From an uncultured Gemmatimonadales bacterium (GTDB lineage Bacteria; Gemmatimonadota; Gemmatimonadetes; Gemmatimonadales; GWC2-71-9), in contig CAWCFX010000001.1 in the NCBI GenBank assembly GCA_963795085.1, positions 768,001 through 832,000 on the forward strand: a DNA stretch of 64,000 nt, written 5' to 3'. The translations under genes and the position numbers were made by a program. Numbering within the stretch: position 1 is the first letter of the stretch; each line of letters starts with the position of its first letter. Under the pieces are notes generated by a model. The model worked only from the letters and a program-made list of their open reading frames with translations, did not search any database and had not been told where the DNA came from. Shown in pieces: positions 1,067 through 57,873 of this stretch.

Positions 1067-2461
1067 ATGGGTCGAGGCTGGCTGGACCGTCTGCTCAGAG
1101 TCTTTACCGACGTTCGGGAGGGAGAAGGGGCGACCGCTCTGCTCCTCATGCTGAACGTGTTCCTGATCCTCACCGCGTACCTGATGCTCAAGGTAGTCCG
1201 GGAGCCGCTGATCCTGGCCGGCGGCGGCGCCGAGGTCAAGAGCTACGCCTCGGCGGGGCAGGCGATCCTGCTGCTCGTCCTGGTGCCGCTCTACGGCTGG
1301 GTGGCCAGCCGGTTTCCCCGCAAGAAGCTCATCAATATCGTCACCATCGGCTTTGCGCTCTGCCTCCCCCTGTTCTACCTGCTGGCCCGGCTCGACGTTC
1401 CCCTCGGCATTGTCTTCTTCCTGTGGATCGGGGTCTTCAACCTGATGATCGTGGCCCAGTTCTGGGCTTTCGCCAACGACATCTATACCACCGAAGAGGG
1501 CAAACGGCTTTTCCCGCTGGTGGCCTTCGGGGCCTCGGCGGGTGCGGTGGCCGGGAGTTTCATCGCAGGGCTGCTGATCGCGCCGGTGGGCGTGTACCAG
1601 CTCATGCTGGTGGCGGCGCTGGTCCTGCTGGCCAGCCTGGTGCTGACCAACATCGTGGACCGGCGGGAGCGGGCCCGGCGGGAGGGCCACCTCCCGCCGC
1701 CCGACACCACGGCCGAAATGCCGGCGGCCACCACCGCCGAGATGCGGGTGGCCACCACCGGCGAGATGCGGGCGGCGCCGGCGGGCACGCAGCCGGTGCA
1801 GCGGGAGGGCCCCTTCCAGCTGGTGCTCCGGAACCGGTACCTGCTGCTGATCGCGTTCATGATCCTGGTGCTCAACTGGGTGAACACCACCGGCGAATAC
1901 ATCGTCGGGCGGACGGTGAGCGAGGCCGCGGCCACCGCGGCGGCGCGGCCGGGCGCGCCCAGCGAGGAGGTGTTGATCGGGCAGTTCTACGCCGGATACA
2001 CCGGGGTGGTGAACCTGGCTGCGCTGCTGATCCAGCTGTTCCTGGTCTCCCGGATCGTCAAGTACGCCGGGGTGCACCGCGCGATTCTCATCCTGCCGTT
2101 CATCGCCCTGGGCGGGTATCTCCTGCTGGCGGTCTATCCCGTGCTGAGCGTGGTACGGTGGGCCAAGACGGCGGAGAACTCGACCGATTATTCGCTGCAG
2201 AACACCCTGCGCCACATGCTCTTCCTGCCCACCACTCGGGACCAGAAGTACAAGGCCAAGCAGGCGATCGACGGATTTTTCGTGCGGGCGGGGGACGTGC
2301 TGTCGGCCGTCCTGGTCTTCGGGGGGACGACCTGGCTGGCGCTCAGCTCCTCGGGCTTCGCGGCCTTCAACCTCGGCCTGGCGGTGGTGTGGCTGGTGCT
2401 GGCGGTGCTGGTGGGGCGGGAGTTCCGGCGGCGGACCGCGGAGCAGGTGGAAGGGCGATAA
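1067..2461 (+). CDS. Npt1/Npt2 (TLC, ATP:ADP antiporter family) nucleotide translocase
   Basis: About 12 hydrophobic segments; YLMLKVVREPL, QFWAFANDIYTTEEGKRLFP, ENSTDYSLQNT, KYKAKQAIDGFFVRAGD. Confidence 0.85.
   Translation: MGRGWLDRLLRVFTDVREGEGATALLLMLNVFLILTAYLMLKVVREPLILAGGGAEVKSYASAGQAILLLVLVPLYGWVASRFPRKKLINIVTIGFALCLPLFYLLARLDVPLGIVFFLWIGVFNLMIVAQFWAFANDIYTTEEGKRLFPLVAFGASAGAVAGSFIAGLLIAPVGVYQLMLVAALVLLASLVLTNIVDRRERARREGHLPPPDTTAEMPAATTAEMRVATTGEMRAAPAGTQPVQREGPFQLVLRNRYLLLIAFMILVLNWVNTTGEYIVGRTVSEAAATAAARPGAPSEEVLIGQFYAGYTGVVNLAALLIQLFLVSRIVKYAGVHRAILILPFIALGGYLLLAVYPVLSVVRWAKTAENSTDYSLQNTLRHMLFLPTTRDQKYKAKQAIDGFFVRAGDVLSAVLVFGGTTWLALSSSGFAAFNLGLAVVWLVLAVLVGREFRRRTAEQVEGR
1706..1777 (+). 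repeat. In-frame 24-bp tandem repeat x3 in translocase central loop
   Basis: Encodes TTAEMPAA-TTAEMRVA-TTGEMRAA. Confidence 0.85.
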
Positions 2462-2488
2462 GACGGCAGGACGGTAAGACGGTAAGGC
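2460..2488 (+). repeat. 8-mer tandem repeat (ARGACGGY) overlapping translocase stop
   Basis: AAGACGGC AGGACGGT AAGACGGT AAGGC. Confidence 0.7.
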
Positions 2489-2589
2489 TTTCCGGTCCGG
2501 ACTGTCACCGTGCCCTGCACCCGCGGCCGAGTAGACAGGCGAAGCATGCTCTCGGCGATTCTACGCTAGAGCGCGGTACGGGAAACCAT

Positions 2590-4833
2590 TCAGGCTCCTT
2601 TGCTCGCCCGGCGCCGGATTTCTTCCAGGTTCAGCGAAATCGAATCGTTGGAGCGCATCAGGTCCGCGATGATCTCCTCCCGCTCCCGGCCCCCGCTTCG
2701 CCGGGGACGCCGGTCCTCCAGGAACGGCCAGAGCCGGACCCGGACCGGGTCGGGCAGCGCGTTCTCGAGATATTCGAGGGCGGTGCCCCGCAGGTGCTCG
2801 TCGTCGGTAAAGAGACCGCGGAACGCAATCCGGAGCGGTGCCTCAGGGAGCGCCAGGGAGAGCACCGTGAACACGTGCTCCATGCTGCGGCCGGCCCGTT
2901 CCCGCAGAAATTCATCGAGGAAGGGATCCTCGACCCCCTCGTCGGCTTCGCTCAGCAGCCGCTGGCTCTCCCAGATCTGCCGGTCCACCATCACCTCGCG
3001 AAGTACCGCATCGAAGACCCGCTGGCCGGGGATCTCGAGTTCAGGGTGATGCCGGTGCAGTTCGGCCAGCGCCCGCCCGGAGCGGTAGCGCACTTCAAAC
3101 CGGCGGTCCCCCAAACCCTCCAACAGGCCGTTCACCGTGCGTTGCGAGGGGGCCGCCGCCAGCAGCGGCGGAATTCGCCGCCGGATGGCGAACGGCTGGT
3201 CCGGGTCCAGCATCGCGTCGAGCAACTGCCCCACGATGGAGGGCGCGATGGCGCGGAGCGCCTCCGCCGCCGGGCGGGCCACCTCGTCCCAGGCGAGCAG
3301 CGGCACGACATGGGGGACCAGGGCAGGCGTCAGCGTCCCGCGGCCCAGCGCGGCGCGGACCCGCGGCCGGTCGCGGGAGCGCAGGTCCTGGATGGCCAGG
3401 AGCTCGGCGTCGCCTTCCAGGGGCGGGGCGGCAGAAGACGGCTCCGCGTCGATACTCTCCGCTCTGATACTCTCCGCCGATGGTGCCTCCTGGCTCACGC
3501 CCGCCCCGACCAGCTGCCCCATGTCGAAGGTGGTCATGGTTTCGAACCCGGTCGGATGTTCCATGGTCACCGAGGTTCCCTCGCTGTCGAGCGCGGCACC
3601 ATGGGCGATCAGCTTCTTCTCCAGCGCTTCCCGATACCCGCCCTGCAGGTTCCGCGCGACCAGCACCGCTGCCGCCGAGAGCGCCACCGCCAGGACGAGG
3701 AGCGACTGGAACGCGATGGCCGGCACCACCAGCAGGCTGGCCTGGACGATGCCGCCGCCGATCACGTCGCCCAGCCGGACCGAGCCGACGTCCACCAGGG
3801 TCTTGGTGGCCCGCTTTTCGTGACGGCGGATCGGGGTGAAGAGCAGCTCATACCCGGAGCGGAAAAGCGAGTTGTGGAAAACGGCTTCGGCGCCCCGGGC
3901 CAGCGCGATGCTTCCCAGGCCGGGGACCATGAGCGCCCCGATGCCGGCAAGGCCCACCGAACCGGGCAGCACCGAGACGGTACCGGCCAGGCCAAGGCGG
4001 TCAAGGACGGCACGGGTGAACCCGCTCTGCACCAGGAAGGTGAGGAGCGAGACGCCGGTGTAGAAGGCGGCGAAGAACCGGAGCAGCCGTTCGCCATCGC
4101 CCATGCGGAGGACCGCCTGGCCCTTGAAGACAAAGTCCACCAGCCCCTCCGCCACCGTGCACAATACCACCAGGATGACAAGGTGGCGCAGGTACGGCAC
4201 CGTGCCGAGGAGCCGGACGCCTTCCAGGGTGGAAAGTCGCTGGGGAGGGGCCGCGGAAGCGGGCCGGGCCGGGCGGGAGGCCAGTAGCACCCGCACCATG
4301 ACGGTGGCGAGCAGGTGAAACCCGGCCAGCACCAGGAGCATGGCGCTGACTCCCGCCATCGCCGCGGTCCGTTCGGCCAGGACGCCACCGATCACCCCGC
4401 CGATGGTGCCCGCCGCCCCGATCCGGGCGATCTGGCGGCGGGCGCTCCGGGGATCGAACCGCTCGTTGACCATGGACCAGAACCCGGATATCAGCAGTGC
4501 GCCCATCACGGTGAAGTGGAGGTACACCAGGACGGCGACGGCCCGGCCGGAGGGGCCCATGAGGCCCCACTCCAGCAGCAGCAGCACCGTGCTCGCGCCG
4601 AACAGGGAGGGCACGAATCGCCAGGGACCGTGCCGGCTGATATGCCGGGCCGCCCAGAGGACGGCGATGACGGAGAGAATGGAGGAGGTGATCACCATGG
4701 TGGGCAGCATGGTGAGGGGAAAACTGGACAGAAACAGCGCGTCCCGGGTCGCCTTGCCTCCGACCTGGAAGGCGATCATGGCCGCCGAGGCGGCGGCCGC
4801 GGCGACTACCGCGGTCCGGCGGGACTCGGCCAC
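2590..4833 (-). CDS. Npt/TLC-like MFS transporter fused to C-terminal HEAT-like helical repeats
   Basis: GKATRDALFLS, FWSMVNERFDPRSARR, ELLFTPIRRHEKRATKTLVDVG; C-terminal HEAT-like LGDRRFEVRYRSGRAL, HLRGTALEYLEN. Confidence 0.75.
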   Translation of the reverse strand: MAESRRTAVVAAAAASAAMIAFQVGGKATRDALFLSSFPLTMLPTMVITSSILSVIAVLWAARHISRHGPWRFVPSLFGASTVLLLLEWGLMGPSGRAVAVLVYLHFTVMGALLISGFWSMVNERFDPRSARRQIARIGAAGTIGGVIGGVLAERTAAMAGVSAMLLVLAGFHLLATVMVRVLLASRPARPASAAPPQRLSTLEGVRLLGTVPYLRHLVILVVLCTVAEGLVDFVFKGQAVLRMGDGERLLRFFAAFYTGVSLLTFLVQSGFTRAVLDRLGLAGTVSVLPGSVGLAGIGALMVPGLGSIALARGAEAVFHNSLFRSGYELLFTPIRRHEKRATKTLVDVGSVRLGDVIGGGIVQASLLVVPAIAFQSLLVLAVALSAAAVLVARNLQGGYREALEKKLIAHGAALDSEGTSVTMEHPTGFETMTTFDMGQLVGAGVSQEAPSAESIRAESIDAEPSSAAPPLEGDAELLAIQDLRSRDRPRVRAALGRGTLTPALVPHVVPLLAWDEVARPAAEALRAIAPSIVGQLLDAMLDPDQPFAIRRRIPPLLAAAPSQRTVNGLLEGLGDRRFEVRYRSGRALAELHRHHPELEIPGQRVFDAVLREVMVDRQIWESQRLLSEADEGVEDPFLDEFLRERAGRSMEHVFTVLSLALPEAPLRIAFRGLFTDDEHLRGTALEYLENALPDPVRVRLWPFLEDRRPRRSGGREREEIIADLMRSNDSISLNLEEIRRRASKGA

Positions 4834-4834
4834 G

Positions 4835-5449
4835 TCATCGGTCCCCGTCCTTCAGTTGGCGGCCGAGTTCAGCCGCCAGGAGCCGCAGCTCGTTGACCAT
4901 GCCGCGTCCCTTCCACTCGGGCCGGGACTCCAGGTTGTCCAGCAGCGAACGGTACCACCAGAGGATCTCTTCCGCGTTGGCCAGGCAGATGGACGACAGG
5001 TACTCCCGCCCCAGCCGCCGCACGTCGGCGATCAGCGAGCCGCAGTAGTGAATCTCGCTCGCGGTGCAGACTTCCAGCGCACGGCTGCCGGCCCGGGCCA
5101 GCTGCCCGAGGTACTCCAGCTTGTACACCGTCCAGGGACGGAGCTGGCCCCGGCCGTCGTGGCGCGGCTCGCAGGCGTCCGACAGCACGGTAATGACCAC
5201 CGATCCGAACTTGTCCGCCACCTTGTGCCGCACCAGGTGCTGGTCATCCGGCCGGGTTTCGGCCAGCACCGGGTGGAGGATCCCGGCGATGATGGTGTGC
5301 TCATCGCAGCCAAAGCGGGCCAGGATGAGCCCGGTGTGCGATGGGTGGGTCAGGTAGGAAAGCCCGGTGCCTTCGCGAGAACGGGGCACATAGTACTTGG
5401 CTGCGAACGCCAGGGCATGATTGATGGGGTCGCTGTAGCCGTGGGCCAT
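4835..5449 (-). CDS. HD_4 / Mesh1-SAH-like protein with degenerate catalytic motifs
   Basis: INHALAFAA..SYLTHP..AGILHPVLAE..KFG; start moved to ATG 5449 because the ORF extension is repeat-derived. Confidence 0.75.
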   Translation of the reverse strand: MAHGYSDPINHALAFAAKYYVPRSREGTGLSYLTHPSHTGLILARFGCDEHTIIAGILHPVLAETRPDDQHLVRHKVADKFGSVVITVLSDACEPRHDGRGQLRPWTVYKLEYLGQLARAGSRALEVCTASEIHYCGSLIADVRRLGREYLSSICLANAEEILWWYRSLLDNLESRPEWKGRGMVNELRLLAAELGRQLKDGDR

Positions 5450-5524
5450 GGGAGTGCAGAGTTCAGAGTTCAGAGTGCAGAGTTCAGGGTCCAGAGCACT
5501 CTGCACTCTGCACTCTGCACTCCC
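5450..5524. repeat. Inverted pair of 7-mer arrays (AGTKCAG)n / (CTGCACT)n
   Basis: Ends GGGAGTGCAGAG and CTCTGCACTCCC are a perfect 12-bp inverted repeat; fills the queE-HD gap. Confidence 0.9.
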
Positions 5525-5525
5525 T

Positions 5526-6170
5526 TCAGGGGATGCCGAGAAGCTTATGCGTTTGGAGGCTCAAGCGCCATTCGGGGTGGGCCAGGCAATACTCGACGGC
5601 CAGCCGGGTGGTGGCATCCTTGTCGGGACCGTCCATGGGCTGAAGAAAGAAATGCTGGAAGGCGAGGCGCCGGTACCGTTCCGGTTCCGCGCCCGGCTGG
5701 GGGAAAACCAGCTTCAGCTCGTGGCCCTCCGTCAGGACGAGTGGGGCGCCGGCTTTGGGGCTGACGCAGATCCAGTCCAGCCCCGGGGGCGCTGGCTGGG
5801 TTCCGTTGGTCTCCACCGCCACCTCCAACCCGGTGGCGTGAAAGGCGTCGATCAGGGCGCTATTGAGCTGGAGCAGGGGTTCGCCCCCGGTGCAGACGAT
5901 GTAGGGACGGCCCCCGGATGACCTGGCGCCGTTTGTCCAGGTGTCGATCGCGGCCCCGGCGAGGGCCCCGGCGGTGGCGAACTTGCCGCCTCCCGGTCCC
6001 TCGGTGCCGACGAAATCGGTGTCGCAGAACTGGCAGACCGCCTGGTGCCGGTCCTCCTCCCGGCCAGTCCAGAGATTACACCCGGCGAAGCGGCAGAACA
6101 CAGCCGCCCGTCCCGCCTGGGCGCCCTCGCCCTGGAGGGTGTAGAAGAGTTCCTTGACGGCGTAAGACAC
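5526..6170 (-). CDS. queE: 7-carboxy-7-deazaguanine synthase, Cx14CxxC radical SAM type
   Basis: ELFYTLQGEG, CNLWTGREEDRHQAVCQFCDT, TGGEPLLQ, VETNGT, SLQTHK; GTG start at 6170. Confidence 0.95.
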   Translation of the reverse strand: MSYAVKELFYTLQGEGAQAGRAAVFCRFAGCNLWTGREEDRHQAVCQFCDTDFVGTEGPGGGKFATAGALAGAAIDTWTNGARSSGGRPYIVCTGGEPLLQLNSALIDAFHATGLEVAVETNGTQPAPPGLDWICVSPKAGAPLVLTEGHELKLVFPQPGAEPERYRRLAFQHFFLQPMDGPDKDATTRLAVEYCLAHPEWRLSLQTHKLLGIP

Positions 6171-6181
6171 AGGGGGAAGAT

Positions 6182-6306
6182 AATTGAGGGAATTGGGAAA
6201 TTGAGGGAATGTTGGAATTGAATCAAATTCCCTCAATTCCCTCAATTCCCTCAATTCCCTCAATTCCCTCAATTCCCTCAATTCCCTCAATTCCCTCAAT
6301 TCCCTC
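6182..6306. repeat. 9-mer array (AATTCCCTC)x9 with short degenerate inverted arm
   Basis: Nine copies at 6226-6306; AATTGAGGG-type copies at 6182-6220; queC stop lies in the array. Confidence 0.95.
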
Positions 6307-6994
6307 CCCCATATTTCCCCGGGTCGGTCATCCCCGCCTCCTGAAATCCCTGGAGCCGCAGCAGGCAGGCGTCGCAGCGGCCGCAGGCGAGGCCGTCCGG
6401 CGCGGCCGTGTAGCAACTGATCGTCATTCCATAATCCACGCCCAGTGCGCCGCCGCGCTGGATGATCTGTGCCTTGCTGAGATTGATGAGCGGGGTGTGG
6501 ATACTGAAGCGGCGGCCTTCAACGCCTGCCCGGGTGGCCAGGTTTGCCACCTGCTCGAAGGCGGCAATGAACTCGGGCCGGCAGTCTGGGTAGCCGCTGT
6601 AGTCCACCGCGTTCACCCCGATGAAAATGTCCTGCGCCCCGAGCACTTCGGCCCAGCCCAGGGCATAGGAGAGAAAAATGGTATTGCGGGCCGGGACGTA
6701 GGTCACCGGGATTTCGCCGGCCGTCTCCAGGGGAGACCGATCCAGCGGAACCTCCAGGTCCGAGGTGAGCGCCGACCCCCCCCAGGCACGAAGGTCGATC
6801 TGCGCCACGATGTGGCGAGCCACCCGCTGCGACTCGGCTACCCGTCGGGCGGCCGCCACCTCGGCCGCGTGCCGCTGGCCGTAGTCGAAACTCAGGGCGT
6901 AGGTCTCGAATCCATCGGTGCGGGCGATCGCCAGGACCGTCGCCGAATCGAGCCCGCCGCTCAGGAGCACCACCGCCTTCTGGGGAGGAACCAT
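6296..6994 (-). CDS. queC: 7-cyano-7-deazaguanine synthase
   Basis: SGGLDS, YGQRH, TYVPARN, SGYPDCR, SCY..CGRCDAC. Confidence 0.97.
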
Positions 6995-12547: not shown

Positions 12548-14491
12548 GTGCCCGCCACCCCGGCCGCTCCGGCCGCGACCCCGGCCACCCCGCCGGGATG
12601 GACCATCAAGGATTCCGAAAAGCTCTACAACATGAGCGGCTGGGGCATGGGGTTCTTCCGCATCAACGCTGATGGCCACGTCGCGGTGCACCCGGACCGC
12701 AATCCCAAGCGGGGCCTGGACCTGTACCAGTTGGCCACCGACCTGACCGCCCAGGGGGTCGGCCTGCCGCTCCTCCTCCGGTTCTCGGATATTCTCCGGG
12801 CCCGCATCGAGATGCTGGCGGGCGCCTTCCAGAGTGCCATCAAGGAGTTCGAGTACGAGGGTTCCTACACGACGGTGTATCCCATCAAGGTGAACCAGCA
12901 GCGGCACGTCGTGCAGGAAATCGTCGAGTTCGGTGCGCCGTTCGGGGTCGGGCTCGAGTGCGGCAGCAAGGGAGAATTGCAGGCCATCCTGGGCCTTTCC
13001 GACGCCAGCAACCATCTCATCGTCTGCAACGGGTACAAGGACGAGGAGTTCATGCGGCTGGCGCTGATGGGGCACAAGGTGGGCCACACGGTGATGATCG
13101 TGCTGGAACAGCCCAACGAGCTGGACGTGCTGCTCAAGGTGGCCGCCGATATGGACGTCACGCCCACGGTCGGGGTGCGGATCAAGCTGGCCAGCGAGGG
13201 GGCCGGGCGGTGGGCCAAGAGCGGCGGCGAGAAGAGCAAGTTCGGCCTCTCCCCCGTCGAACTGATGAAGCTGCTGGACAAGCTGGAGACGCTGGGCCGG
13301 AAGGACGTGCTCAAGCTGGTTCACTTCCACCTCGGCAGCCAGATCACCGATATCCGCTACATCAAGGCCGGCCTGGAAGAGGTGGCCCGCTACTACGGCG
13401 AGCTGCGGCGGATGGGGTTTTCGATCGACTATGTCGATGTGGGCGGCGGGCTGGGTGTGGACTATGACGGTTCCCGCTCCACCCGCCCGGCCAGCGTCAA
13501 CTACACGATGCGGGAGTACGCCAACGACGTCGTCTATGTCATCGGCACGGCCTGCCGGTCGGCCGGCATCCCGATGCCGCACTTGATCTCGGAGTCGGGG
13601 CGGGCCATTACGGCGCACCATTCGCTGCTCCTCATCAACGTCATCGACGTCGAGTCCCAGAGCGAGCTGGCGGTCCCCGAACTGGGCAAGAAGCCGCACT
13701 CGCTGCTCAAGGAGATGGCCGAGAACCTGGAGAGCATGAGCCTGGAGCGGGCCCAGGAAGTGGCCCATGACGCCACCTTCGCCAAGGAGCGGGCCCAGGA
13801 ACTGTTTGCGAGCGGGGTGTTGAGCCTGCCCGAGCGGGCCCACGCGGAACAGCTCTTCCTGGCCACCCTGACCGGCCTGGTCCGGCTGATCGGAGAGGAC
13901 AAGGCGGCCTACGCCGAGATCATGGCCGATATCGATCCCATCCTGGTGGACCGCTATTTCTGCAATTTCTCCCTTTTCCAGTCATTGCCCGACAACTGGG
14001 CGATCGACCAGCTCTTCCCGATCATGCCCATCCACCGGCTGGCGGAGGCGCCCACCCGGCGGGGCACCCTGCAGGACGTGACCTGCGATTCCGATGGCAA
14101 GATCGAGCGGTTTGCGGGCGGGCGGAAAGGCAAACCCTCGCTGGAACTGCACCCGTACCGGGAGGATCAGCCCTACATCCTGGGCATCTTCCTCACGGGG
14201 GCGTACCAGGAAATCCTGGGCGACCTGCACAACCTGTTCGGCGATACCAACGCGGTGCACGTCCGGCTCAAGGAGCACGGTTATGAGATCACCGACCTGG
14301 TCCACGGCGACACCGTGACCGAAGTCCTCAACTATGTCCAGTTCCATGCCCAGGACCTGCTGGCCACCTTCCGCCGCAAGGTGAGCACGGCGCGGGGCCT
14401 GACGCGGCAGGAGGCGAATACGTTCATCGCCGACTACGTCGCGGGCCTGGAGGGCTATACGTACCTGGAAGGGGAGGTGCCGGCCGAATAG
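12548..14491 (+). CDS. speA: Biosynthetic arginine decarboxylase
   Basis: YPIKVNQ, GLECGSK, HFHLGSQI, DVGGGLGVDYDGS, ESGRA, TCDSDG, GAYQEILGDLHNLFG. Confidence 0.97.
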   Translation: MPATPAAPAATPATPPGWTIKDSEKLYNMSGWGMGFFRINADGHVAVHPDRNPKRGLDLYQLATDLTAQGVGLPLLLRFSDILRARIEMLAGAFQSAIKEFEYEGSYTTVYPIKVNQQRHVVQEIVEFGAPFGVGLECGSKGELQAILGLSDASNHLIVCNGYKDEEFMRLALMGHKVGHTVMIVLEQPNELDVLLKVAADMDVTPTVGVRIKLASEGAGRWAKSGGEKSKFGLSPVELMKLLDKLETLGRKDVLKLVHFHLGSQITDIRYIKAGLEEVARYYGELRRMGFSIDYVDVGGGLGVDYDGSRSTRPASVNYTMREYANDVVYVIGTACRSAGIPMPHLISESGRAITAHHSLLLINVIDVESQSELAVPELGKKPHSLLKEMAENLESMSLERAQEVAHDATFAKERAQELFASGVLSLPERAHAEQLFLATLTGLVRLIGEDKAAYAEIMADIDPILVDRYFCNFSLFQSLPDNWAIDQLFPIMPIHRLAEAPTRRGTLQDVTCDSDGKIERFAGGRKGKPSLELHPYREDQPYILGIFLTGAYQEILGDLHNLFGDTNAVHVRLKEHGYEITDLVHGDTVTEVLNYVQFHAQDLLATFRRKVSTARGLTRQEANTFIADYVAGLEGYTYLEGEVPAE

Positions 14492-14492
14492 T

Positions 14493-14628
14493 CAGTGGGA
14501 CAGTGGGACAGTGGGACAGGTGGGACAGTGGGACAGTGGGACAGTGGGACAGTGGGACAGTAGGACAGTAGGACAGTAGGACAGTAGGACAGTGGGACAG
14601 TGGGACAGTGGGACAGTGGGACAGTGGA
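14493..14628 (+). repeat. 8-mer array (CAGTRGGA), 16 copies plus a partial
   Basis: Fills the gap between convergent speA and kinase stops; block of four CAGTAGGA variants in the middle. Confidence 0.95.
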
Positions 14629-21305: not shown

Positions 21306-22105
21306 AATCGGACGGATTGATGCAGGAAATGACGCTGGACCCGGTCGATATCCCCCCGGGTCGAGATATCGAACACACCCTCCCCGGACCCGATCACCCG
21401 GTAGCGCTCGCCCAGGACGTCGATGGAGTACTGCACGGCATCGGGAAGTTCCAGTTCTCCCCGGGGCGAGGGGCCGATGGCGCGGCAGGCCTCGAAGATC
21501 CGGGGAGAGAACCGCCAGCAGTTCATGCTGGTCATGGCCTCATCGTTCCCGGTGCCGGAGGTCCCCAGGCGCTGGAGGTGCCCATCCTCTCCGGGAACCA
21601 CTACGGGGAAAGACTCGGCGCGCTCCCGGGGGACGCCGGTCCGTTCCATCAGGCCCGCCCGGGTAAAGGCGACGAGCCCCGGCCCATCGAGCTGGCGCAG
21701 GGCCGCGAGTGCGGCGCAGGGATAGTAGTTGTCGGAGTTGAGGACCAGGAACGGGTCGGCACCAGAGAAGCTTCGGGCGGCCAGCACGGCGTCTGCCGTT
21801 CCCAGGGGGGCGGCCTGGATGGCATGCTGAATGGTGATCCGGGTGAGCCCCAGCCCATCGTAGTAGTCGCGAACGGCACCGTGTTCCGGGCCGGTGACGA
21901 GACAGATCTCGACGGCGCCCGCATCGGCCAGGGCGGCCAGGGTGTAGTCCAGGAACGGCCGCCCGACCGGGATCATGGCTTTGACGCCGGTCGCCGCGAC
22001 CCGCGCCTGCTCGTCGGAAAGCGGGGCGGCGTCATCGGGCCGGCGCATCCGGGTGCCCAGGCCCCGGGCCATGATGACGGCCTTGGAGACGGCGCAAGGC
22101 GGCAA
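21302..22105 (-). CDS. Sugar-1-phosphate nucleotidyltransferase family protein
   Basis: KAVIMARGLGTRM, KAMIPVG, PLGTADAV, NSDN, SPRGELELPDA; start uncertain (TTG 22105 or 22129, both inside a repeat). Confidence 0.85.
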   Translation of the reverse strand: MPPCAVSKAVIMARGLGTRMRRPDDAAPLSDEQARVAATGVKAMIPVGRPFLDYTLAALADAGAVEICLVTGPEHGAVRDYYDGLGLTRITIQHAIQAAPLGTADAVLAARSFSGADPFLVLNSDNYYPCAALAALRQLDGPGLVAFTRAGLMERTGVPRERAESFPVVVPGEDGHLQRLGTSGTGNDEAMTSMNCWRFSPRIFEACRAIGPSPRGELELPDAVQYSIDVLGERYRVIGSGEGVFDISTRGDIDRVQRHFLHQSVRL

Positions 22106-22131
22106 GGGGGCAAGGGGGCCGGGGGGCAAGG
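22094..22131. repeat. 8-mer array (GCAAGGGG)
   Basis: GCAAGGCG GCAAGGGG GCAAGGGG GCCGGGGG GCAAGG. Confidence 0.75.
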
Positions 22132-34158: not shown

Positions 34159-34770
34159 ATGACCGCCCGCGCCCTCCTCGTTCTTGGCCTGCTGCTGATC
34201 CCGGACCTGGCCCCCGCCGGGCTATTCGCCCAGACGCCCGCCGCACCCCCGCCGCGGACCGGGGACGAACTCCAGGCCAGCTTCCTCGCTCACAGGAACG
34301 AGTTCGACTACCTCCTCGGCGACTGGGAGTTCACCAGCCAGAGCCAGCAGTACGGGAGGGGCCAGGGACTCTGGTCCGCGGTCCGGCTGGCCGAAGGCCA
34401 GATACTGGACGAGTACCGGGTGATGGGAGACAGCGGCGAGACGTACTACGTCACCACTACCCTGCGTAACTACAACGGGGCGCTCGACCGCTGGGAGCTC
34501 ACCGGCGCCGACGCCGGCCGCGGCCTGCTCGACACGGGAACGGGCCGCAAGGTCGGCGACGAAATCCATATCGAGCAGCACTTCGGCGTGGGCGGCCCGG
34601 AACCGTCGCTCTGGCGGATCCGCTACTACGACATCCGGCCCGATCGCTTCTCCTGGACCGGCGACCGCTCCACCGACGAGGGCCGCACCTGGATCCGGCA
34701 GTATCTCATCATCGAGGCCCGGCGGATCGGACCCGCGCGCGTGATGGAGCCGCTGACGGCAGGACGGTAG
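34159..34770 (+). CDS. Exported hypothetical protein (DUF1579-like beta-barrel)
   Basis: Signal peptide, FDYLLGDWEF, FSWTGDRSTDEGRTW. Confidence 0.65.
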   Translation: MTARALLVLGLLLIPDLAPAGLFAQTPAAPPPRTGDELQASFLAHRNEFDYLLGDWEFTSQSQQYGRGQGLWSAVRLAEGQILDEYRVMGDSGETYYVTTTLRNYNGALDRWELTGADAGRGLLDTGTGRKVGDEIHIEQHFGVGGPEPSLWRIRYYDIRPDRFSWTGDRSTDEGRTWIRQYLIIEARRIGPARVMEPLTAGR

Positions 34771-34817
34771 GATGGTGGGACGGTAAGGCGGTAGGATGGT
34801 AAGAGCGGCAGGATGGT
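34761..34817 (+). repeat. 8-mer array (AGGAYGGT) x7 containing the stop codon of the upstream gene
   Basis: AGGACGGT AGGATGGT GGGACGGT AAGGCGGT AGGATGGT AAGAGCGGC AGGATGGT; same family as 2460-2488. Confidence 0.85.
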
Positions 34818-34880
34818 ATGACGTTGGTTCCCTGGGCCATACCTATGCGCGGTACGCCACACCCCAGTGCGTCCCGCACT

Positions 34881-38716: not shown

Positions 38717-38836
38717 ATCCCTCAATCCCTCAATTCCCTCAATTCCCTCAATTCCCCCATTCCCTCAATTCCCTCAATTCCCTCAATTCCCCCATTCCCT
38801 CAATTCCCTCAATTCCCCTCCCATTTCCCTCAATTC
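38717..38836. repeat. Mixed 9-mer/8-mer array (TTCCCTCAA / TTCCCCCA)
   Basis: Same 9-mer as 6226-6306; multicopper oxidase stop (38830-38832) lies in it. Confidence 0.92.
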
Positions 38837-44135: not shown

Positions 44136-44186
44136 GAAAGCTCCAGGTGAAGTGCGGGGCAGGGCGGGCCGGCCCGCCCCGGTTTA

Positions 44187-44353
44187 TCAGGCGTCGTCAG
44201 GAAGAACTCGTACGGATGGGGCCGCCGGTTCACCGCCGGCAGGTCCCGGGTCCGTTTCATCGCCTGCCAGGTTGCGATGGCGTCGGGCGTGAAGACATCG
44301 CCTTCGAGCAGGAACTCGTGGTCGGCGTCCAGCGCATCGAGGGTGGTGGCCAT
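44187..44353 (-). pseudogene. glnA: C-terminal remnant of type I glutamine synthetase
   Basis: LDALDADHEFLLEGDVFTPDAI..K..VNRRPHPYEFFL resembles the GS-I tail; native-looking GAC GCC TGA end is out of frame. Confidence 0.8.
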
Positions 44354-44630: not shown

Positions 44631-46322
44631 GTGAGCCAGCCGCGATGTTCCACCTGCCAGGCGCCCCTCGCGGCGGATGCGCTGTTCTGCATGAGCTGTG
44701 GCATGCCGGTGGGTTCGACCCCGGTGACCCGGGCGCCGTCGCGGGAGGGGGACATCCCGGTCCGCGACCGCCTGTCCAAGGCGCTGGGTCTCAAGTTCGA
44801 GGTGCGGGGGACGCTGGGCCGGGGCGGGTTCGCCGAGGTGTTTGAGGTGTTCGACCAGGACCTGCACCGGCGCCTGGCGGTCAAGGTGCTCCACCCCGAA
44901 ATCGCCTGGACCGGCGGCATGATCCTCCGCTTCAAGCAGGAGGCCCGGACCCTGGCCCGGCTGGACCACCCCAACATTCTTCCCATTCATTTCGTGGGCG
45001 AGGGTGAAGGGCTGGTCTATTACGCGATGCCGCTGGTGGAGGGCGAGACCGTTGCCGGGCTGTTGCGGGGGAAGCCGGCGCTGCCGGTGGACCAGGCCTT
45101 GGACATCGCCCGTCCGGTCCTGGACGCTCTCGACCACGCCCATGCCCTGGGGTTGGTCCACCGCGACATCAAGCCCGAGAACATCCTCATCCAGCGCAGT
45201 AACGGGCGGGTGCTGCTGGTGGATTTCGGAATTGCCAAGCAGCTGGGCGAGGCGACCAGCGGACTGACCGCGACCGGGTTTACCCTGGGTACGCCCCACT
45301 ACATGGCGCCGGAGCAGGCGCTGGGGCAGGGCAACCTGGACCACCGCGCGGATCTCTATGCCACCGGCGCGGTGCTGTACCAGATGGTCATCGGCGCGCC
45401 GCCGTACGAGGGTGAGTCGTCCCAGGAGATCGTCGGCAAGCATATCGCCGAACCCATCCCCCGGCCCAGTACCCGGGACACCCGGGTTCCCCACTGGCTG
45501 AGCGAGGTGATCGTACGCCTGCTGGCCAAGCGTCCGGAGGACCGATACCAGTCGGCGGCCGCCGTGCTGGAGGCGCTCGCCCTGGGGCGGGTCTCCGGCA
45601 AACAGGCGGCCGTCAGCGGGGACAGTGTGGCCCGCCGCATCGAGGCGGAGCAGACCGCCGTCATTCCCAGCCAGGAGCGTCCCGTGACTACTCCATCCAC
45701 GCCCGTCCCCGAAACCCGCCGGCGCGGGTCAGGGTGGCTGCTGCTTCTCCTGGTCGCGGCGCTCGCGGTCGCCGGCTACCTGCTGTTCCAGGGCGGGCCG
45801 ACCCTCGTCATCCAGAACCGGCTGGTAGAACCGGTCAAGGTCATCGCCGGGGGGCAGGAGCGGCAGGTCGCCGAAGGGGGTGAGGTGGCGATTCCACTCA
45901 AGCGGGGGGAGCGGCTCTTCGCCCAATGGTACCTGGTGCAGCCGCTGGGCCCCGGCGGCAAGCCGCTGGGTGAGTTGCTGCAGGGCACACTGCAGCAGGA
46001 CCAGGCGCGCGGCCGGGTAATCCTGGAGATCACGGCCCGCACCAGGGACGGCGCCCATTTCGCTCCCCTGGTGTCCAACGGCACCGACCGGCCGGTGCGT
46101 ATCATCGTGAACGCCGGATTGGCGGGGTCCACCGATTGCGAGTGCGGCGTGCCGGCCGGCTCCACCCGAACCCGGATCGGGTACTATCGGCTCTTCCAGA
46201 ACAGCACCGTGCGGGCCGTGGACGGGCAGGGCCGGAGCGCGACATTTCGGGACCTCGGCCCCCAGGTTCGGGATGCGGGAGGAAGTGTCGGACTGCGCTT
46301 CAACGCCGGCGACTTCCAGTAG
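44631..46322 (+). CDS. Ser/Thr protein kinase with N-terminal zinc ribbon, TM and extracytoplasmic domain
   Basis: CSTC..CMSC, GRGGFA, LAVK, HRDIKPEN, DFG, YMAPE. Confidence 0.92.
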   Translation: MSQPRCSTCQAPLAADALFCMSCGMPVGSTPVTRAPSREGDIPVRDRLSKALGLKFEVRGTLGRGGFAEVFEVFDQDLHRRLAVKVLHPEIAWTGGMILRFKQEARTLARLDHPNILPIHFVGEGEGLVYYAMPLVEGETVAGLLRGKPALPVDQALDIARPVLDALDHAHALGLVHRDIKPENILIQRSNGRVLLVDFGIAKQLGEATSGLTATGFTLGTPHYMAPEQALGQGNLDHRADLYATGAVLYQMVIGAPPYEGESSQEIVGKHIAEPIPRPSTRDTRVPHWLSEVIVRLLAKRPEDRYQSAAAVLEALALGRVSGKQAAVSGDSVARRIEAEQTAVIPSQERPVTTPSTPVPETRRRGSGWLLLLLVAALAVAGYLLFQGGPTLVIQNRLVEPVKVIAGGQERQVAEGGEVAIPLKRGERLFAQWYLVQPLGPGGKPLGELLQGTLQQDQARGRVILEITARTRDGAHFAPLVSNGTDRPVRIIVNAGLAGSTDCECGVPAGSTRTRIGYYRLFQNSTVRAVDGQGRSATFRDLGPQVRDAGGSVGLRFNAGDFQ

Positions 46323-46325: not shown

Positions 46326-46390
46326 CCCCCCCCACTCCCATTCCCCCATTCCCCCTTGCCCCCTTGCCCCCTTACCCTCTTGCCCCCTTT
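46326..46390 (+). repeat. C-rich 8-mer array (CCCCCATT then CCCCCTTG)
   Basis: Fills the kinase-S2P gap; combines units seen at 38717 and at 22094/57800. Confidence 0.85.
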
Positions 46391-47100: not shown

Positions 47101-47103
47101 GAG

Positions 47104-47261
47104 GGGCGGGCGAACCTGGGCGGGCGAACTGGGCGGACAGTATCTCGACTGATTTTCCGCTCCGCCCTTCATGTCCGCCCTTCATGTCCGCCCATTTTCA
47201 TGTCCGCCCTTCATGTCCGCCCTTCATGTCCGCCCTTCATGTCCGCCCTTCATGTCTGCCC
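47104..47261. repeat. 13-mer array (TCCGCCCTTCATG) x7 with inverted GGGCGG-type arm
   Basis: Right arm 47161-47261 contains the dinB stop; left arm GGGCGGGCGAAC(C)T x2 plus GGGCGGACA at 47104-47139. Confidence 0.9.
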
Positions 47262-48455
47262 TCTGACCCCGCCTGGTTCGGCCTTATCCACCAGCTTGGC
47301 CACCTTCATCGCGTCAAACCCATACTTCTCCCGCACCTTGTCCACGGCGCTGGTGATCTCGCGGGCCCGGGTCCGCTGTTCCGGCTCGAAGAGATCGGCC
47401 GGGCCGGCCACGACGATGTTGGTGGCCGCGACGCCGATCAGGCGGGCGCCCTGGTTCCGGGCCCGCATCTCGGCGTAGGCCGGCCCGAACAGCTCCCGGG
47501 CGGCGGCGTAGATCTCGCCGTCCAGGCTGGTGGGTTGCGCCAGTGTCTTCCGGCGGGTAACGGTGCGGAAATCCCCGTGGCGGAGCTTGAGCTGGACGGT
47601 ACGGGCGGCGAGTCCTTCATCTCTCAACTGGGCCGCGACCCGCGCGGCGAACAGGGTGAGGATCCGGTCCAGCCGGGCCGGGTCGGTGCTGTCGGCGGAG
47701 AGGGTGGTCTCCCGGCTCACCGACTTTGGCAGCTGGCCGGGCGTGAGGACGGTGCCGCCATGGCCGTGGGCCCGGTATTTAAGCGCCTTGGCATCGGAGC
47801 CAACCAGGGCCGTCAGCTGCTCGAGCGACAGCTTCTGGACCTGCCAGACTTCGGCCAGGCCCAGCCGGGCCAGGTGGGCCGCCGTCTTGGGGCCAATCCC
47901 GGGCAGGGCGCCGAGCGGCAGGCCGGCGACGAAGCCGGCTTCCCAGCCGGGTCGAATTTCCATCAGCCCCCGGGGCTTGGCCGCGTCGGATGCCAGCTTG
48001 GCGATCATCCGGTTGGGTCCGATGCCGATGCTGCAATCAAGCCCGGCGGCGGTCCGCACCGCCTGCCGGATCTGCTCGGCCACCGGCAGGAGCGACACCG
48101 GGTAAAGCAACTCGGTTCCGGTGAAGTCGAGATAGGCCTCGTCCAGCGATGCCATCACCACGGTGGGCGAGAAATCCTGGAGCACCGCCCGGACCTCCCG
48201 GGAGGCCTGCCGGTAGTGGGCAAACGTGCCCTGGAAGAACGTGGCCTCCGGGCAGAGCCGCACCGCCTGGGCGATGGGCATCCCGGAACGGACACCGAAC
48301 TTCCGGGCGGCGTAGGACGCCGATTGGACCACGCCGCGCTGTTCCCGCCGTCCTCCCACCACCAGCAGATCCACGGTTCGCAGTTCCGGATGGAACCGGC
48401 GGCAAACCTCCACGAAAAAGGCGTCGAGGTCAACGTGAACGAAGCGGGGGGGCAT
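47250..48455 (-). CDS. dinB: DNA polymerase IV
   Basis: HVDLDAFF, SASYAARKFGVRSGMP, SLDEAYLD, AKLASDAAKP, PGIGPKT. Confidence 0.95.
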   Translation of the reverse strand: MPPRFVHVDLDAFFVEVCRRFHPELRTVDLLVVGGRREQRGVVQSASYAARKFGVRSGMPIAQAVRLCPEATFFQGTFAHYRQASREVRAVLQDFSPTVVMASLDEAYLDFTGTELLYPVSLLPVAEQIRQAVRTAAGLDCSIGIGPNRMIAKLASDAAKPRGLMEIRPGWEAGFVAGLPLGALPGIGPKTAAHLARLGLAEVWQVQKLSLEQLTALVGSDAKALKYRAHGHGGTVLTPGQLPKSVSRETTLSADSTDPARLDRILTLFAARVAAQLRDEGLAARTVQLKLRHGDFRTVTRRKTLAQPTSLDGEIYAAARELFGPAYAEMRARNQGARLIGVAATNIVVAGPADLFEPEQRTRAREITSAVDKVREKYGFDAMKVAKLVDKAEPGGVRGQT

Positions 48456-55106: not shown

Positions 55107-55883
55107 ATGGATAGCCCTACCCTCGTCCTGGTCGCCCCCCAGGACATCGTCAACATCGCCAGCGCCGTCCGGATCTGCCGCAACTTCGGCATCACCGATC
55201 TCCGCCTGGTGACCCCGGCGGTGTTCGATCCCTGGCGGATCGAAGGCATCGCCCACAACACCGCGGCGCTGGTGGAGACCATCCGGATCTTCGATTCCCT
55301 CGACGCGGCGGTGGCGGACTGCGGCCTGGTCGTCGGCCTGACCGCGCGAGGCCGGACCGCCAAGCGGCACCTGCTCCGGCCCCGGGCCGCGGCCCGGGAG
55401 ATCGTGACCGCGCTGGGGGACGCCCCGGCCGCCATGGTCGCGGGACGGGAGGACAAGGGGCTCAGCAACGCCGAACTGGACCGTTGCCACCTGCTGGTGA
55501 CCATTCCCACCTCGCCCGACTATCCCTCCCTCAACCTGGCCCAGGCCGTCGCGGTGATGAGCTACGAGACCTGGCTGGCGCGGGGCGGGGAAGACCAGCC
55601 GGTCAAACCGCACCGCAAGCAGGCCGACCCCGCCCTGGCGGGCCAGATGGAAATGCTCTTCCAGGACTGGGAACGGTCGCTCTGGATCATCGAGTTCTTC
55701 AAGACCCGGCAGCCCGAGTCGGTGCTGCGCTCGCTCCGGGAAATTCTCTACCGGGCCCGGATGGACGGGCGGGAGGCGGCGCTGGTGCGGGCCATGGGGA
55801 TTGAAATCAGGAGGTTTACCGAGAGGAAAGGACTAACTGCAGAACTACAAAGCACGAAAGACGACAAAACAGACGTCAGTTGA
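55107..55883 (+). CDS. trmJ: TrmJ/LasT-family SPOUT RNA methyltransferase
   Basis: NIASAVRICRNFG, GREDKGLSN, IPT..YPSLNLAQAV. Confidence 0.85.
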   Translation: MDSPTLVLVAPQDIVNIASAVRICRNFGITDLRLVTPAVFDPWRIEGIAHNTAALVETIRIFDSLDAAVADCGLVVGLTARGRTAKRHLLRPRAAAREIVTALGDAPAAMVAGREDKGLSNAELDRCHLLVTIPTSPDYPSLNLAQAVAVMSYETWLARGGEDQPVKPHRKQADPALAGQMEMLFQDWERSLWIIEFFKTRQPESVLRSLREILYRARMDGREAALVRAMGIEIRRFTERKGLTAELQSTKDDKTDVS

Positions 55884-56470
55884 CCACCCTGCGGATGGCG
55901 AGCAGGGTGGCTTGAAAGTTCAGCAGTAAGCCGACCCGGAGATTGCTGGCCTTGAGATAGGAGCGCAGTTGCCTTTCATGCAGGTCGGTCAGGGTCTTGA
56001 CCGCCTTCAGCTCGACGATGATCTCTTCCTCGATAACCAGGTCCAGGCGGTGAAGGCCGACGTCGATTCCCTCGTAGAGCACGGTAATTTCTTTCTGGGA
56101 TTCAAAGGCGATCTGCCGCTTCGCCAGTTCCACGCTCATCGCCTTCTGATAAATCGACTCGATGAACCCAGGCCCCAGTGCCCGGTGCACGGCGATGGCG
56201 GCCCCGATCACCTTCCCCGAGGAAGGCTCGAACTCCAGCTCGGTTTCCGCAGCCCGGGATACCGGCAGGTCTTCGCCCGTGATGCCCAGCCCATCCGCCA
56301 TGTCGCTCCATCCTTTCACCATTGATAGCAGGGCATCGCCATAGCCCCGTCATCCCTTTTCACGCTGTCTGGGGCAGGAAATCGCAAGGCTTTCTAGTGA
56401 GATATGTGCTGAGGTCCACATGCGCCATTCGCCGGTTCTTCGATCTTTTGTATTTTGTCGTTCGGCGGTT
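55835..56470. mobile_element. Candidate GxxExxY cassette bounded by imperfect inverted repeats
   Basis: Left AACTGCAGAACTACAAAGCACGAAAGA vs reverse complement of right AACCGCCGAACGACAAAATACAAAAGA: 21/27 identical; visibly AT-richer than neighbours. Mobility is inferred. Confidence 0.5.
55876..56301 (-). CDS. GxxExxY protein (PD-(D/E)XK_3 nuclease-like)
   Basis: AAIAVHRALGPGFIESIY, RLDLVIEEEIIVELKAV, QLRSYLK, GLLLNF. Confidence 0.93.
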   Translation of the reverse strand: MADGLGITGEDLPVSRAAETELEFEPSSGKVIGAAIAVHRALGPGFIESIYQKAMSVELAKRQIAFESQKEITVLYEGIDVGLHRLDLVIEEEIIVELKAVKTLTDLHERQLRSYLKASNLRVGLLLNFQATLLAIRRVVN

Positions 56471-57111: not shown

Positions 57112-57129
57112 TCGTGAATGATTTCACAA
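57112..57129. promoter_or_regulatory. Rex-like operator upstream of actA
   Basis: TCGTGAATGATTTCACAA matches TTGTGAA-N4-TTCACAA at 13/14; overlaps candidate TTGCTT-17-CAAACT promoter. Confidence 0.65.
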
Positions 57130-57200
57130 ACTTCTCCGGCCCCGAGTGCAGCCGCGCACGTCGAGGCACCTTTTTATCTCACGCCGGGTGAACAGCGCGT

Positions 57201-57800
57201 ATGCGTAAGCTCGTCCTTGTCGGGAGTGGAACCACGGCCCTGGCCCTCGCGGGTTTCTTCATCCTGCAGGGTGCCGGCGGTCCCACCCCCGCCGCGGCAC
57301 CCCAGGGCCAGCCGCCGGCGGCCCCCGCCAACCCGGTCGCCATCGAGGACACCGGGGCCCTGGCAGGACCCCGCCAGCCGATCTTCTTCCGCCACGACAT
57401 TCACGCCGGGCAGTACCAGATCCAGTGCCAGTACTGCCACTACTCCGTCAGCGTCTCGTCCGAGCCGGGCATCCCGACGGTGGAAACCTGCATGGGGTGC
57501 CACCTGGTCATCGCCGGGTCCGATAGCGGGGCCCGCACTGAAATCCGCAAACTCCGCCAGGCCAGCGCGGAGAAGAAACCCATCGAGTGGGTGCGGATCC
57601 ACGCCCTGGCCCGCCATGCGCACTTCCCCCACCAGCGGCATATCAAGGCGATGGGCCCCACCGCCTGCATGACCTGCCACGGCGACGTGCAGCGCATGCC
57701 CCAGGTGTACAAGGTCAACAACGTGACCAACATGGGCTTCTGCATTACCTGCCATATCGAACGAAAAGTCTCCCGCGACTGTACGGTGTGTCATTACTGA
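57201..57800 (+). CDS. actA: Alternative complex III pentahaem cytochrome c
   Basis: Five CxxCH motifs (CQYCH, CMGCH, CMTCH, CITCH, CTVCH); QPIFFRHDIHAG. Confidence 0.9.
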   Translation: MRKLVLVGSGTTALALAGFFILQGAGGPTPAAAPQGQPPAAPANPVAIEDTGALAGPRQPIFFRHDIHAGQYQIQCQYCHYSVSVSSEPGIPTVETCMGCHLVIAGSDSGARTEIRKLRQASAEKKPIEWVRIHALARHAHFPHQRHIKAMGPTACMTCHGDVQRMPQVYKVNNVTNMGFCITCHIERKVSRDCTVCHY

Positions 57801-57873
57801 AGGGGGCAAGGGGGCAAGGGGGCAAGGGGGCAAGAGGGCAAGGGGGCAAAAGGGGGCAGGGGGGCCAGGGGGT
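57800..57873 (+). repeat. 8-mer array (AAGGGGGC), about nine copies
   Basis: Starts on the last base of the actA stop codon. Confidence 0.92.

Follow-up and report, generated by a model that had tools for sequence, protein, structure and literature searches.

Ten tandem-repeat arrays at gene boundaries

The window analysed here is a stretch of 64,000 nt (68% G+C) from a member of the Gemmatimonadales, called a soil-type bacterium, and carries ten short-unit tandem-repeat arrays, each lying between genes and at or beside a stop codon (Table 1). Fifty genes were called in the window with our own codon-score caller, trained on its long open reading frames (ORFs) of high third-position G+C (GC3), and 40 of them have a Pfam match at E <= 1e-5. 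Tandem Repeats Finder (TRF), used for array detection, returned 68 rows for the window, among which periods of 7-14 nt stand out. It recovers all ten loci listed in a sequence-only reading of this DNA, and all ten are intergenic; together the arrays cover 829 of the window's 4681 intergenic bases. Among the tandem repeats inside genes, those of higher score all have a period divisible by three (21, 24, 15 and 24 nt at 1412, 1705, 3442 and 19132). The units of the ten arrays run head to tail with no spacers, and the unique spacers of a CRISPR array are accordingly absent. Three loci consist of two opposed arms and seven of a single arm; the loci at 5452, 6183 and 34755 are also called 5450, 6182 and 34761 below.

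Table 1. Repeat arrays, predicted hairpins and the array-bearing operon of the window (TRF copy numbers follow the unit)
Feature	Position	Strand	Repeat unit or content	Relation to neighbouring genes
Single array, G-rich	2459..2486	+	TAAGACGG x3.5 (TRF)	Opens with the TAA stop of the transporter gene 1067-2461; convergent gap, opposing gene's stop 103 nt away
Two-arm module	5452..5522	-	GAGTKCA x6.4 (5452-5496) joined to GCACTCT x3.9 (5496-5522)	71 nt; starts 3 nt past the queE stop (5526-5528), ends 2 nt before the HD_4 ATG (5449)
Two-arm module	6183..6306	-	Long arm AATTCCCTC x9 (6226-6306), G-rich on the minus strand; 3-unit opposite arm (6183-6210)	Long arm includes the queC TGA (6296-6298); short arm ends 12 nt ahead of the queE GTG (6170)
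Single array	14493..14627	+	CAGTGGGA x16.8	Occupies 135/138 nt between the arginine decarboxylase (speA) stop (14489-14491) and the stop of an opposite-strand kinase gene (14630-14632)
Single array	22094..22131	-	TRF GCAAGGGG x4.8; coding strand CCCCTTGC x4.8, C-rich	Adjoins the symporter TGA (22132-22134), extends into the nucleotidyltransferase N-terminal region
Single array, G-rich	34755..34823	+	GACGGTAG x8.5	Convergent gap; encloses the TAG stop (34768) of gene 34159-34770
Single array	38718..38836	-	TRF TCCCTCAAT x13.2; minus strand ATTGAGGGA x13, G-rich	Encloses the multicopper oxidase TGA (38830-38832); next start 38645, 72 nt off
Single array, C-rich	46326..46389	+	CCCCCTTG-type; TRF span 46337-46389, C-rich run from 46326	Occupies 64/76 nt between the kinase TAG (46320-46322) and the M50 peptidase ATG (46399)
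Two-arm module, convergent gap	47104..47262	.	GGGCGGGCGAACCT x2.4 (47104-47136) and TCCGCCCTTCATG x7.6 (47161-47262)	Begins 3 nt past the M50 TAG; last TCCGCCCTTCATG unit contains the dinB TGA (47250-47252); each gene trailed by a G-rich arm on its own strand
Single array, G-rich	57800..57872	+	AAGGGGGC x8.9	Starts on the last TGA base of the multihaem cytochrome gene 57201-57800; 37 nt ahead of the next ATG in the alternative complex III operon
Operon	4835..6973	-	queC (6296-6973), queE (5526-6170), HD-domain gene (4835-5449)	Both internal junctions carry hairpin modules
Predicted hairpin	5448-5528	-	dG -51.6 kcal/mol, z -8.8	queE/HD_4 junction
Predicted hairpin	6168-6300	-	dG -68.7 kcal/mol, z -6.9	queC/queE junction
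Predicted hairpin	47101-47250	.	dG -64.8 kcal/mol, z -5.1	M50/dinB gap

The earlier claim that each array touches a stop codon or nearly does so is borne out by direct inspection of the codons: all ten loci lie within 4 nt of a stop. Were each array placed at random in its own gap, this would happen at all ten with a joint probability of 1.8e-5. Six arrays enclose the stop (TAA at 2459, TGA at 6296, TAG at 34768, and TGA at 38830, 47250 and 57798), and the arrays fill between 20 and 100% of their gaps. The four single arrays in tandem gaps all stand against the stop, with the next start 9, 37 or 72 nt away and with no intervening distance at 22094. The stops concerned are those of housekeeping genes (queC, queE, speA, dinB and the cytochrome gene), a placement unlike that of phase-variation contingency loci, which lie in the promoters or 5' coding regions of surface or virulence genes.

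The array at 22094 reaches into the start region of the gene downstream. The conserved N-terminus of the nucleotidyltransferase, KAVIMARGLGTR, begins at 22084, and the only in-frame starts upstream of it are GTG 22153, which overlaps the upstream gene, and TTG 22129 and TTG 22105, both inside the array, whose unit contains TTG. Either the start comes from the array, then, or part of the array is translated; as its frame is that of the nucleotidyltransferase gene, it may provide the start codon or a Pro/Leu-rich N-terminal extension.

For comparison, genome contigs were scanned with a queE query, which gave at least 80 loci (best identity among the matches listed, 75%). Sixteen of the listed loci carry a Gemmatimonadota name, and the window's own genome is represented by the window alone. 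Six Gemmatimonadales loci (L055, L003, L073, L017, L021 and L010) share 6-9 of the 50 window proteins in conserved order, with citrate synthase 82-86% identical to that of the window. To these were added stretches of the two plasmids of Gemmatirosa kalamazoonensis (450 kb from plasmid 1, 50 kb from plasmid 2), these plasmids being the best plasmid matches of a window kinase. Counted as arrays of period 6-16 with at least 3 copies and a score of at least 50, density per 100 kb is 14.1 in the window, 6.0 in the 16 Gemmatimonadota loci, 17.6 on Gemmatirosa plasmid 1 and 8.0 on plasmid 2, compared with 1.8 in 64 loci of other phyla (1.03 Mb), a contrast that marks the arrays as a lineage trait and not an accident of assembly.

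Array-bearing gaps are unevenly distributed among gap types. In the window they make up 5 of 16 tandem, 4 of 8 convergent and none of 11 divergent gaps (a count that leaves out 22094, where the gene call overlaps the array), and on Gemmatirosa plasmid 1 they make up 38 of 167 tandem, 19 of 38 convergent and 12 of 56 divergent gaps. Palindromic repeat modules are dense on plasmid 1, where 69 of 261 gaps carry arrays; in the 50-kb sample of plasmid 2 they were found in 0 of 31. Inverted array pairs in G-first order, or an array shortly before queE, were also seen in three loci outside the named Gemmatimonadota, namely an unclassified 'bacterium' (L038 4266-4366) and metagenome-assembled genomes of the Burkholderiales (L076 5353-5494) and Terracidiphilus (L040 3181-3212); the trait may be wider than one phylum.

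A nearly fixed arm order

The sequence-only reading proposed a polarity rule by which, on a gene's coding strand, the G-rich arm follows a stop and the C-rich arm precedes a start. As worded, this rule cannot fail, because any orientation satisfies one of its clauses: between tandem genes, a G-rich array counts as following a stop and a C-rich array as preceding a start; between convergent genes, an array of either orientation is G-rich behind one of the two stops; and between divergent genes, it is C-rich ahead of one of the two starts. The testable restatement is geometric, namely that on either strand the G- or purine-rich arm lies 5' and the C-rich arm 3', irrespective of gene orientation, and in this form the rule stands. 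Ten of the 13 stop-abutting array ends in the window are G-rich on the coding strand of the adjoining gene, and all four start-abutting ends are C-rich. The three exceptions among the stop ends (the far side of 14493, 22094 and 46326) belong to arrays that fill 98%, 100% and 84% of their gaps, respectively, and single arrays filling a tandem gap have a C-rich coding strand in three of three cases (22094, 46326 and L081 13420).

The test of strand against gene end was extended to a wider set of 796,144 bases of Gemmatimonadota DNA, of which the Gemmatirosa part is plasmid DNA of another genus, and orientation there proved non-random. This set holds 72 candidate inverted pairs of tandem arrays. 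Where such pairs lie in called gaps and have clear opposite skew, the G-rich arm comes first in 42 of 43 (convergent gaps 15/15, divergent 8/8, tandem 19/20); the inverted pairs of the window are G-first in three of three. Arrays with no detected partner are distributed likewise (left and G-rich 20, left and C-rich 4, right and G-rich 2, right and C-rich 14; Fisher p 1.3e-5), so that 34 of 40 single arrays follow the rule, and over all arrays it is followed by 107 and broken by 16. These automated polarity counts also leave out 22094. In addition, the short partner arms of 6226 and 47161 fall under the TRF threshold, and both arrays are therefore counted as singles. Arm order in the modules is nearly fixed, and the rule as first put forward is this fixed order viewed from the adjoining gene, not a relation to the direction of transcription.

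Replication direction was considered as the cause of the polarity and rejected: arrays that are G-rich on the plus strand occur on both sides of the switch in gene orientation and GC skew at ~44-48 kb. Up to ~44 kb most genes of the window are encoded on the minus strand and beyond it on the plus strand, and the sign of the GC skew flips at this switch. The coding strand of the window is C-rich, and array orientation is independent of the 44-48 kb switch.

Hairpins in the queC-queE-HD operon

The gene at 5526-6170 is queE (NCBIfam TIGR04508, E 1e-106), an identification that makes 5450 and 6182 the two internal junctions of a queC-queE-HD operon. RNA folding against dinucleotide shuffles gives strong predicted folds for both, and for the third locus at which inverted arms had been noted, 47104 (Table 1). 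Read along the mRNA, the junction between queE and the HD_4 gene consists of UGA, a single A, the 71-nt hairpin and AUG, and that between queC and queE of a UGA within the first repeat unit, the hairpin and GUG; in both, stop and start are placed at the base of the stem.

The same junctions carry hairpins in relatives, built from other units. At queE/HD_4, four relatives (L055, L073, L021 and L070) have a hairpin of the unit AGCGGGGN (dG -67 to -89, z -5.8 to -8.1), the stem of which extends from the last base of the stop to 4-7 nt before the ATG. Their alignment gives a 33-pair consensus stem in which four pairs are compensatory; they include one A-U to C-G replacement that recurs in three successive units, each time at the corresponding position. 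L055 also has a hairpin at queC/queE (z -4.8), and in L046 one lies between queE and a convergent gene (z -6.3). Elsewhere these junctions are tight: queC and queE overlap by 4 nt in L073, L046 and L010, and queE and HD_4 overlap by 4 nt in L017 and are separated by 18 nt in L003 and 37 nt in L010, whereas the array-bearing gaps at the two junctions measure 76-147 nt. At the 3' end of the arginine decarboxylase gene, the place of the window's CAGTGGGA x17 is taken in L055 by a pair of arrays, AGTGAGA / TCTCACT. In L021 the queC frame reads through a CGGTACGG array (3608-3662) and stops after it, such that the array forms a translated C-terminal extension.

The suggestion that the arrays are selected mRNA structures is supported for the two-arm loci, by the three folds and the conserved stem with its four compensatory pairs in relatives, but does not extend to the seven single arms. 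A search of Rfam with the window gave no match at the gathering score. A Shine-Dalgarno core precedes 19 of the 50 genes in the window (9 of 50 when a control position is scored) and 126 of 366 Gemmatirosa genes (control, 56 of 366); with counts this low, most genes start with no clear Shine-Dalgarno sequence, and C-rich leaders are the norm.

Unit families and their dispersal

Array units recur at distant sites, as the sequence-only reading had noticed. In canonical rotation the unit of 6226 is that of 38718, and the units of 22094, 46337 and 57800 are the same; those of 2459 and 34755 are a single base apart, and both arrays open with the same 15-nt higher-order start, GACGGCAGGACGGTA. None of the window's units was found as a tandem dimer in 89 other loci examined, and relatives have units of their own.

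Gemmatirosa plasmid 1 carries dispersed palindromes of ~150 nt, in which the arrays form the inner arms; the ends of these elements are inverted and conserved, and their loops are themselves palindromic. Inspection covered 11 copies of one family and eight of another, nested as A-B-B'-A'. Copies have outer ends and loops in common, and no target-site duplication was seen in the 11. A further array pair, CTCCCG ... GAGCGGG, its members 560 nt apart, occurs twice on this plasmid (L083 31-632; L084 3090-3692), which suggests a repeated element of ~600 nt.

The earlier proposal of a dedicated process that seeds arrays at gene boundaries survives in part. The distant recurrence of units, the dispersed palindromes of Gemmatirosa and the arm order of 42 in 43 pairs indicate more than local slippage; the cassette route that had been offered as an example does not survive, for reasons given below.

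Relation to described repeats

Short tandemly repeated repetitive (STRR) sequences have heptamer units and are found in heterocystous cyanobacteria. With these and with other long simple sequence repeats (SSRs) the arrays share short units, long intergenic arrays, few families per genome, a patchy phylogeny and the lack of a settled mechanism. To our knowledge, the definition of STRR sequences includes neither a fixed arm order nor contact with stop codons.

The closest likeness is to the repeats described in the available part of Rehm et al. 2015 (PMC4692102), GGGAATC in Xanthomonas and GGGGA(C/T)T in Nostoc. According to that text, these are over-represented in non-coding DNA and under-represented between divergent ORFs, have their G-rich strand closer to the 5' neighbour ORF irrespective of ORF orientation, often overlap stops, form 70-75 cases per genome of two sites 'with convergent orientation' (that is, G-first), and are usually retained at the same junction between two species with changing length; the same part of the article reports that no function was found. 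Dispersed intergenic tandem units, a deficit in divergent gaps, the G-first side, overlap with stops, convergent pairs and retention at a given junction across species with varying length are common to both, and the window shows the non-coding excess, the divergent-gap deficit, the 5' position of the G-rich side and the convergent pairing set out in the available text. It lacks one trait given there, a quadruplex unit with a preference for four G tracts: copy numbers in the window range from 2.4 to 16.8, with no mode at four. Further differences from the Xanthomonas and Nostoc repeats, as far as PMC4692102 describes them, are the phylum, the presence of several families with 7-14-nt units in one genome, the absence of a quadruplex motif from 4 of 10 loci, the hairpins that bridge stop and start within an operon and, in Gemmatirosa, the place of the arrays as inner arms of larger dispersed palindromes. 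Since polarity, location and convergent pairs are already in print for Xanthomonas and Nostoc in that part of the article, the arrays described here represent a new lineage of a known and mechanistically unsolved kind. The GAGGGAATT unit (6183-6306 and 38718-38836) contains the GGGAAT core of Xanthomonas GGGAATC and resembles Nostoc GGGGATT, as these are given there (PMC4692102), so that a nearly identical repeat core occurs in three phyla.

Other described classes are less similar. Long SSRs with units of 5-11 nt were surveyed by Mrazek in 2007, as summarised in the available part of MacGregor 2015 (PMC4679880), which itself describes TAACTGA heptamer repeats of marine Beggiatoaceae, located just upstream of starts and with a proposed role in translation. 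These resemble the arrays as abundant intergenic direct repeats within a few nucleotides of gene boundary codons, there start codons, but from that text they form a single family of mostly 2-6 copies, precede starts and do not follow stops, and include one indirect repeat among 170 sets. Repetitive extragenic palindromes (REPs) and the related BIME and REPIN are, in the accessible portion of PMC3733652, species-specific extragenic palindromes, mostly post-gene in tandem and convergent gaps, often inverted dimers that can fold in RNA, with proposed roles in mRNA stabilisation or termination. REPs as presented there are single 20-40-bp palindromes with GTAG or CGTC tags, some of them RAYT-linked, whereas the arms in the window are tandem arrays in which no tag was recognised; nor was there a common flank in the window, or a Y1 transposase among its 50 genes. 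Miniature inverted-repeat transposable elements have terminal inverted repeats, a target-site duplication and many copies; of these traits, conserved inverted ends are present in the Gemmatirosa copies, with no duplication seen in the 11 inspected, and such ends are absent from the window arrays. A literature search found no description of such arrays for Gemmatimonadota among the papers listed, and no Gemmatimon* name is mentioned in the available text of PMC4060949, PMC13155455 and PMC12699852.

Interpretation and alternative explanations

We favour, with a probability of about one half, the reading that the post-gene gaps of this Gemmatimonadales genome have been colonised by genome-specific families of short-unit repeat modules, with the anatomy, origin and hairpin action proposed here. 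The basic module is a palindrome with a G/purine-rich arm first and a complementary C/pyrimidine-rich arm second, each arm being itself a tandem array. The arms of a module are unequal in length (9 versus 3 units at 6182, 2.4 versus 7.6 at 47104), and slippage would lengthen and shorten each independently; single-arm arrays would then be modules in which one arm was lost or never formed. The arrays were inserted into junctions that had once been tight or overlapping, and for this reason they fill nearly the whole gap, run from codon to codon and touch or supply the stop. A complete module on mRNA is predicted to fold into a long hairpin. Within operons, a ribosome terminating at the upstream stop may unwind the foot of the stem and so expose the next start, keeping translational coupling; between convergent genes the hairpin would close both 3' ends. 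Arm order is probably kept by selection on mRNA: purine arms often hold stop triplets and should be tolerated after genes, and a G-rich, Shine-Dalgarno-like or quadruplex-prone sequence would not be tolerated beside starts, where a C-rich unstructured leader would be. The purine-first order could instead be intrinsic to the making or copying of modules.

Several observations weigh against this reading. The seven single-arm loci fold no better than shuffles (z -1.3 to +1.2; for example, 14493 -0.2, 34755 +0.5, 46326 -0.4 and 57800 +1.2), and with 7 of 10 loci thus single-armed and of no predicted structure, a hairpin role covers only a minority; stop-to-start bridging occurs at two junctions of the window, both in one operon. 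In some relatives the same junctions are free of arrays, which are therefore dispensable, and in Gemmatirosa the arrays stand 1-120 nt from gene ends. The count of 42 in 43 overstates the evidence for a fixed order, as copies of one family are not independent: by exact canonical unit, 18 of 19 units are G-first, several of them interrelated, and the GAGCGTG/CTCCACG family is found in both arm orders. There are no conserved flanks around the window arrays and no transposase, Y1 transposases included, was recognised by Pfam among the 50 window genes, which leaves dispersal with no known agent. The gene calls are home-made with approximate start codons, and we infer the function of the modules from their geometry.

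The strongest rival, although unlikely, is that the arrays are a neutral by-product, in which slippage expands chance seeds in unconstrained DNA and purifying selection acts at coding and promoter DNA alone, with neither dispersal nor function. The array-free junctions of some relatives, the differing copy numbers of the arms and the empty divergent gaps of the window (0/11) are as such a process would leave them, and slippage with a bias towards heptamers is one proposal for the origin of long SSRs (Mrazek 2007, from the summary in the available part of PMC4679880). It does not readily account for the recurrence of an identical 8-nt or 9-nt unit at distant sites (three and two, respectively), for two arrays with a common higher-order start, for an arm order that is nearly fixed even in divergent gaps, or for a hairpin kept across four species with compensatory changes.

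We give a little less weight to two further explanations, both of them doubtful. In the first, the arrays are G-quadruplex (G4) or i-motif elements, the G-rich strand of which folds into quadruplexes that regulate transcription or translation. In the window, the G-rich strand of 6 loci out of 10 contains a canonical G4 motif, and related units form quadruplexes in vitro according to the available text of PMC4692102. The motif is, however, missing at 2459, 5450, 22094 and 34761, the units of relatives that have no G runs (GTTGAGTC, AGTGAGA, GGACTGAAGAA and CGTGGCTG) keep the same arm order, and at 22094 and 46326 the transcribed strand is the C-rich one. Quadruplex potential is not required for the pattern of location and polarity. 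In the second, of comparable standing, a self-renewing palindromic module common to several phyla (Gemmatimonadota, Xanthomonas and Nostoc) would have its order set by making or copying and would have been co-opted as hairpins for the hand-over from stop to start. The order might arise through repeat addition to both 3' ends at a break, or through one-sided deletion beside a replication-blocking G-rich strand that erodes the spacer to the neighbouring gene, and hand-over hairpins would let an insertion sit inside a translationally coupled operon. If true, this explanation would offer a common mechanism for STRR and long-SSR arrays.

Somewhat less probable again is that the hairpins are transcription terminators or RNase III processing sites, which end transcripts or are cut and so uncouple the stability of neighbouring cistrons. 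Their stems are long and near-perfect (25-45 bp), which is the size of an RNase III substrate, and arrays are enriched in convergent gaps (4/8 in the window, 19/38 in Gemmatirosa). Yet no T run follows any of the three window hairpins, as an intrinsic terminator would have; terminator-like sites are not enriched over 1-20 kb (10 versus 8.0 +/- 2.5 in shuffles); two of the three hairpins lie inside an operon, directly ahead of a start codon; and single arms would be incapable of such action.

The cassette route of the sequence-only reading, in which the arms are scars around small mobile genes (GxxExxY, four-helix-bundle or DUF559), is very improbable. A GxxExxY / PDDEXK_3 gene is indeed present in the window (55876-56322), and queE is flanked by arrays on both sides, but there is no array beside the GxxExxY gene, and queE, the sole gene between arms, is a conserved operon member found in the same place in all syntenic relatives. 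At queC/queE and queE/HD_4, no inserted gene is seen in any of seven syntenic relatives (six per junction), where the spacing is -4 to ~230 nt or a hairpin is present, and among 17 candidate rows for complementary arms flanking a small gene in the 796 kb none is convincing, all being low-complexity matches or complete hairpins on either side of an ordinary gene. An assembly artefact is hardly credible: although repeats are prone to mis-assembly, the same kind of array stands at the same junctions in the independent assemblies L055, L073, L021, L070, L046 and L003, and arrays are present in a finished plasmid record.

Ever since long arrays of 5-11-nt units were first catalogued in free-living bacteria, they have lacked an accepted mechanism. 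The rules of location, polarity and pairing reported for one G-rich heptamer in Xanthomonas and Nostoc now hold in a third phylum and with many unrelated units, some of them incapable of forming quadruplexes, so that the question shifts from the role of a G4 motif to why the purine-first order is universal. The junction between queE and the HD-domain gene, overlapping in some species and bridged by a hairpin in others, offers a concrete test bed.

Other genes of the window

The GxxExxY / PDDEXK_3 gene at 55876-56322 (minus strand; E 2e-41) has an 8-nt convergent overlap with the 3' end of a SpoU methylase gene. A 73-residue ORF at 44132-44353 (minus strand) matches only the last ~50 residues of glutamine synthetase (NCBIfam GlnA 413-465, E 5e-7) and lies directly upstream of an ammonium transporter gene, with a gap of 370 nt after it; this ORF probably represents the remnant of a gene. 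The 64 kb also contain four genes for Ser/Thr protein kinases (14630-17617, 23933-26893, 26890-29703 and 44724-46322), two of which carry TPR repeats and two of which are adjacent.

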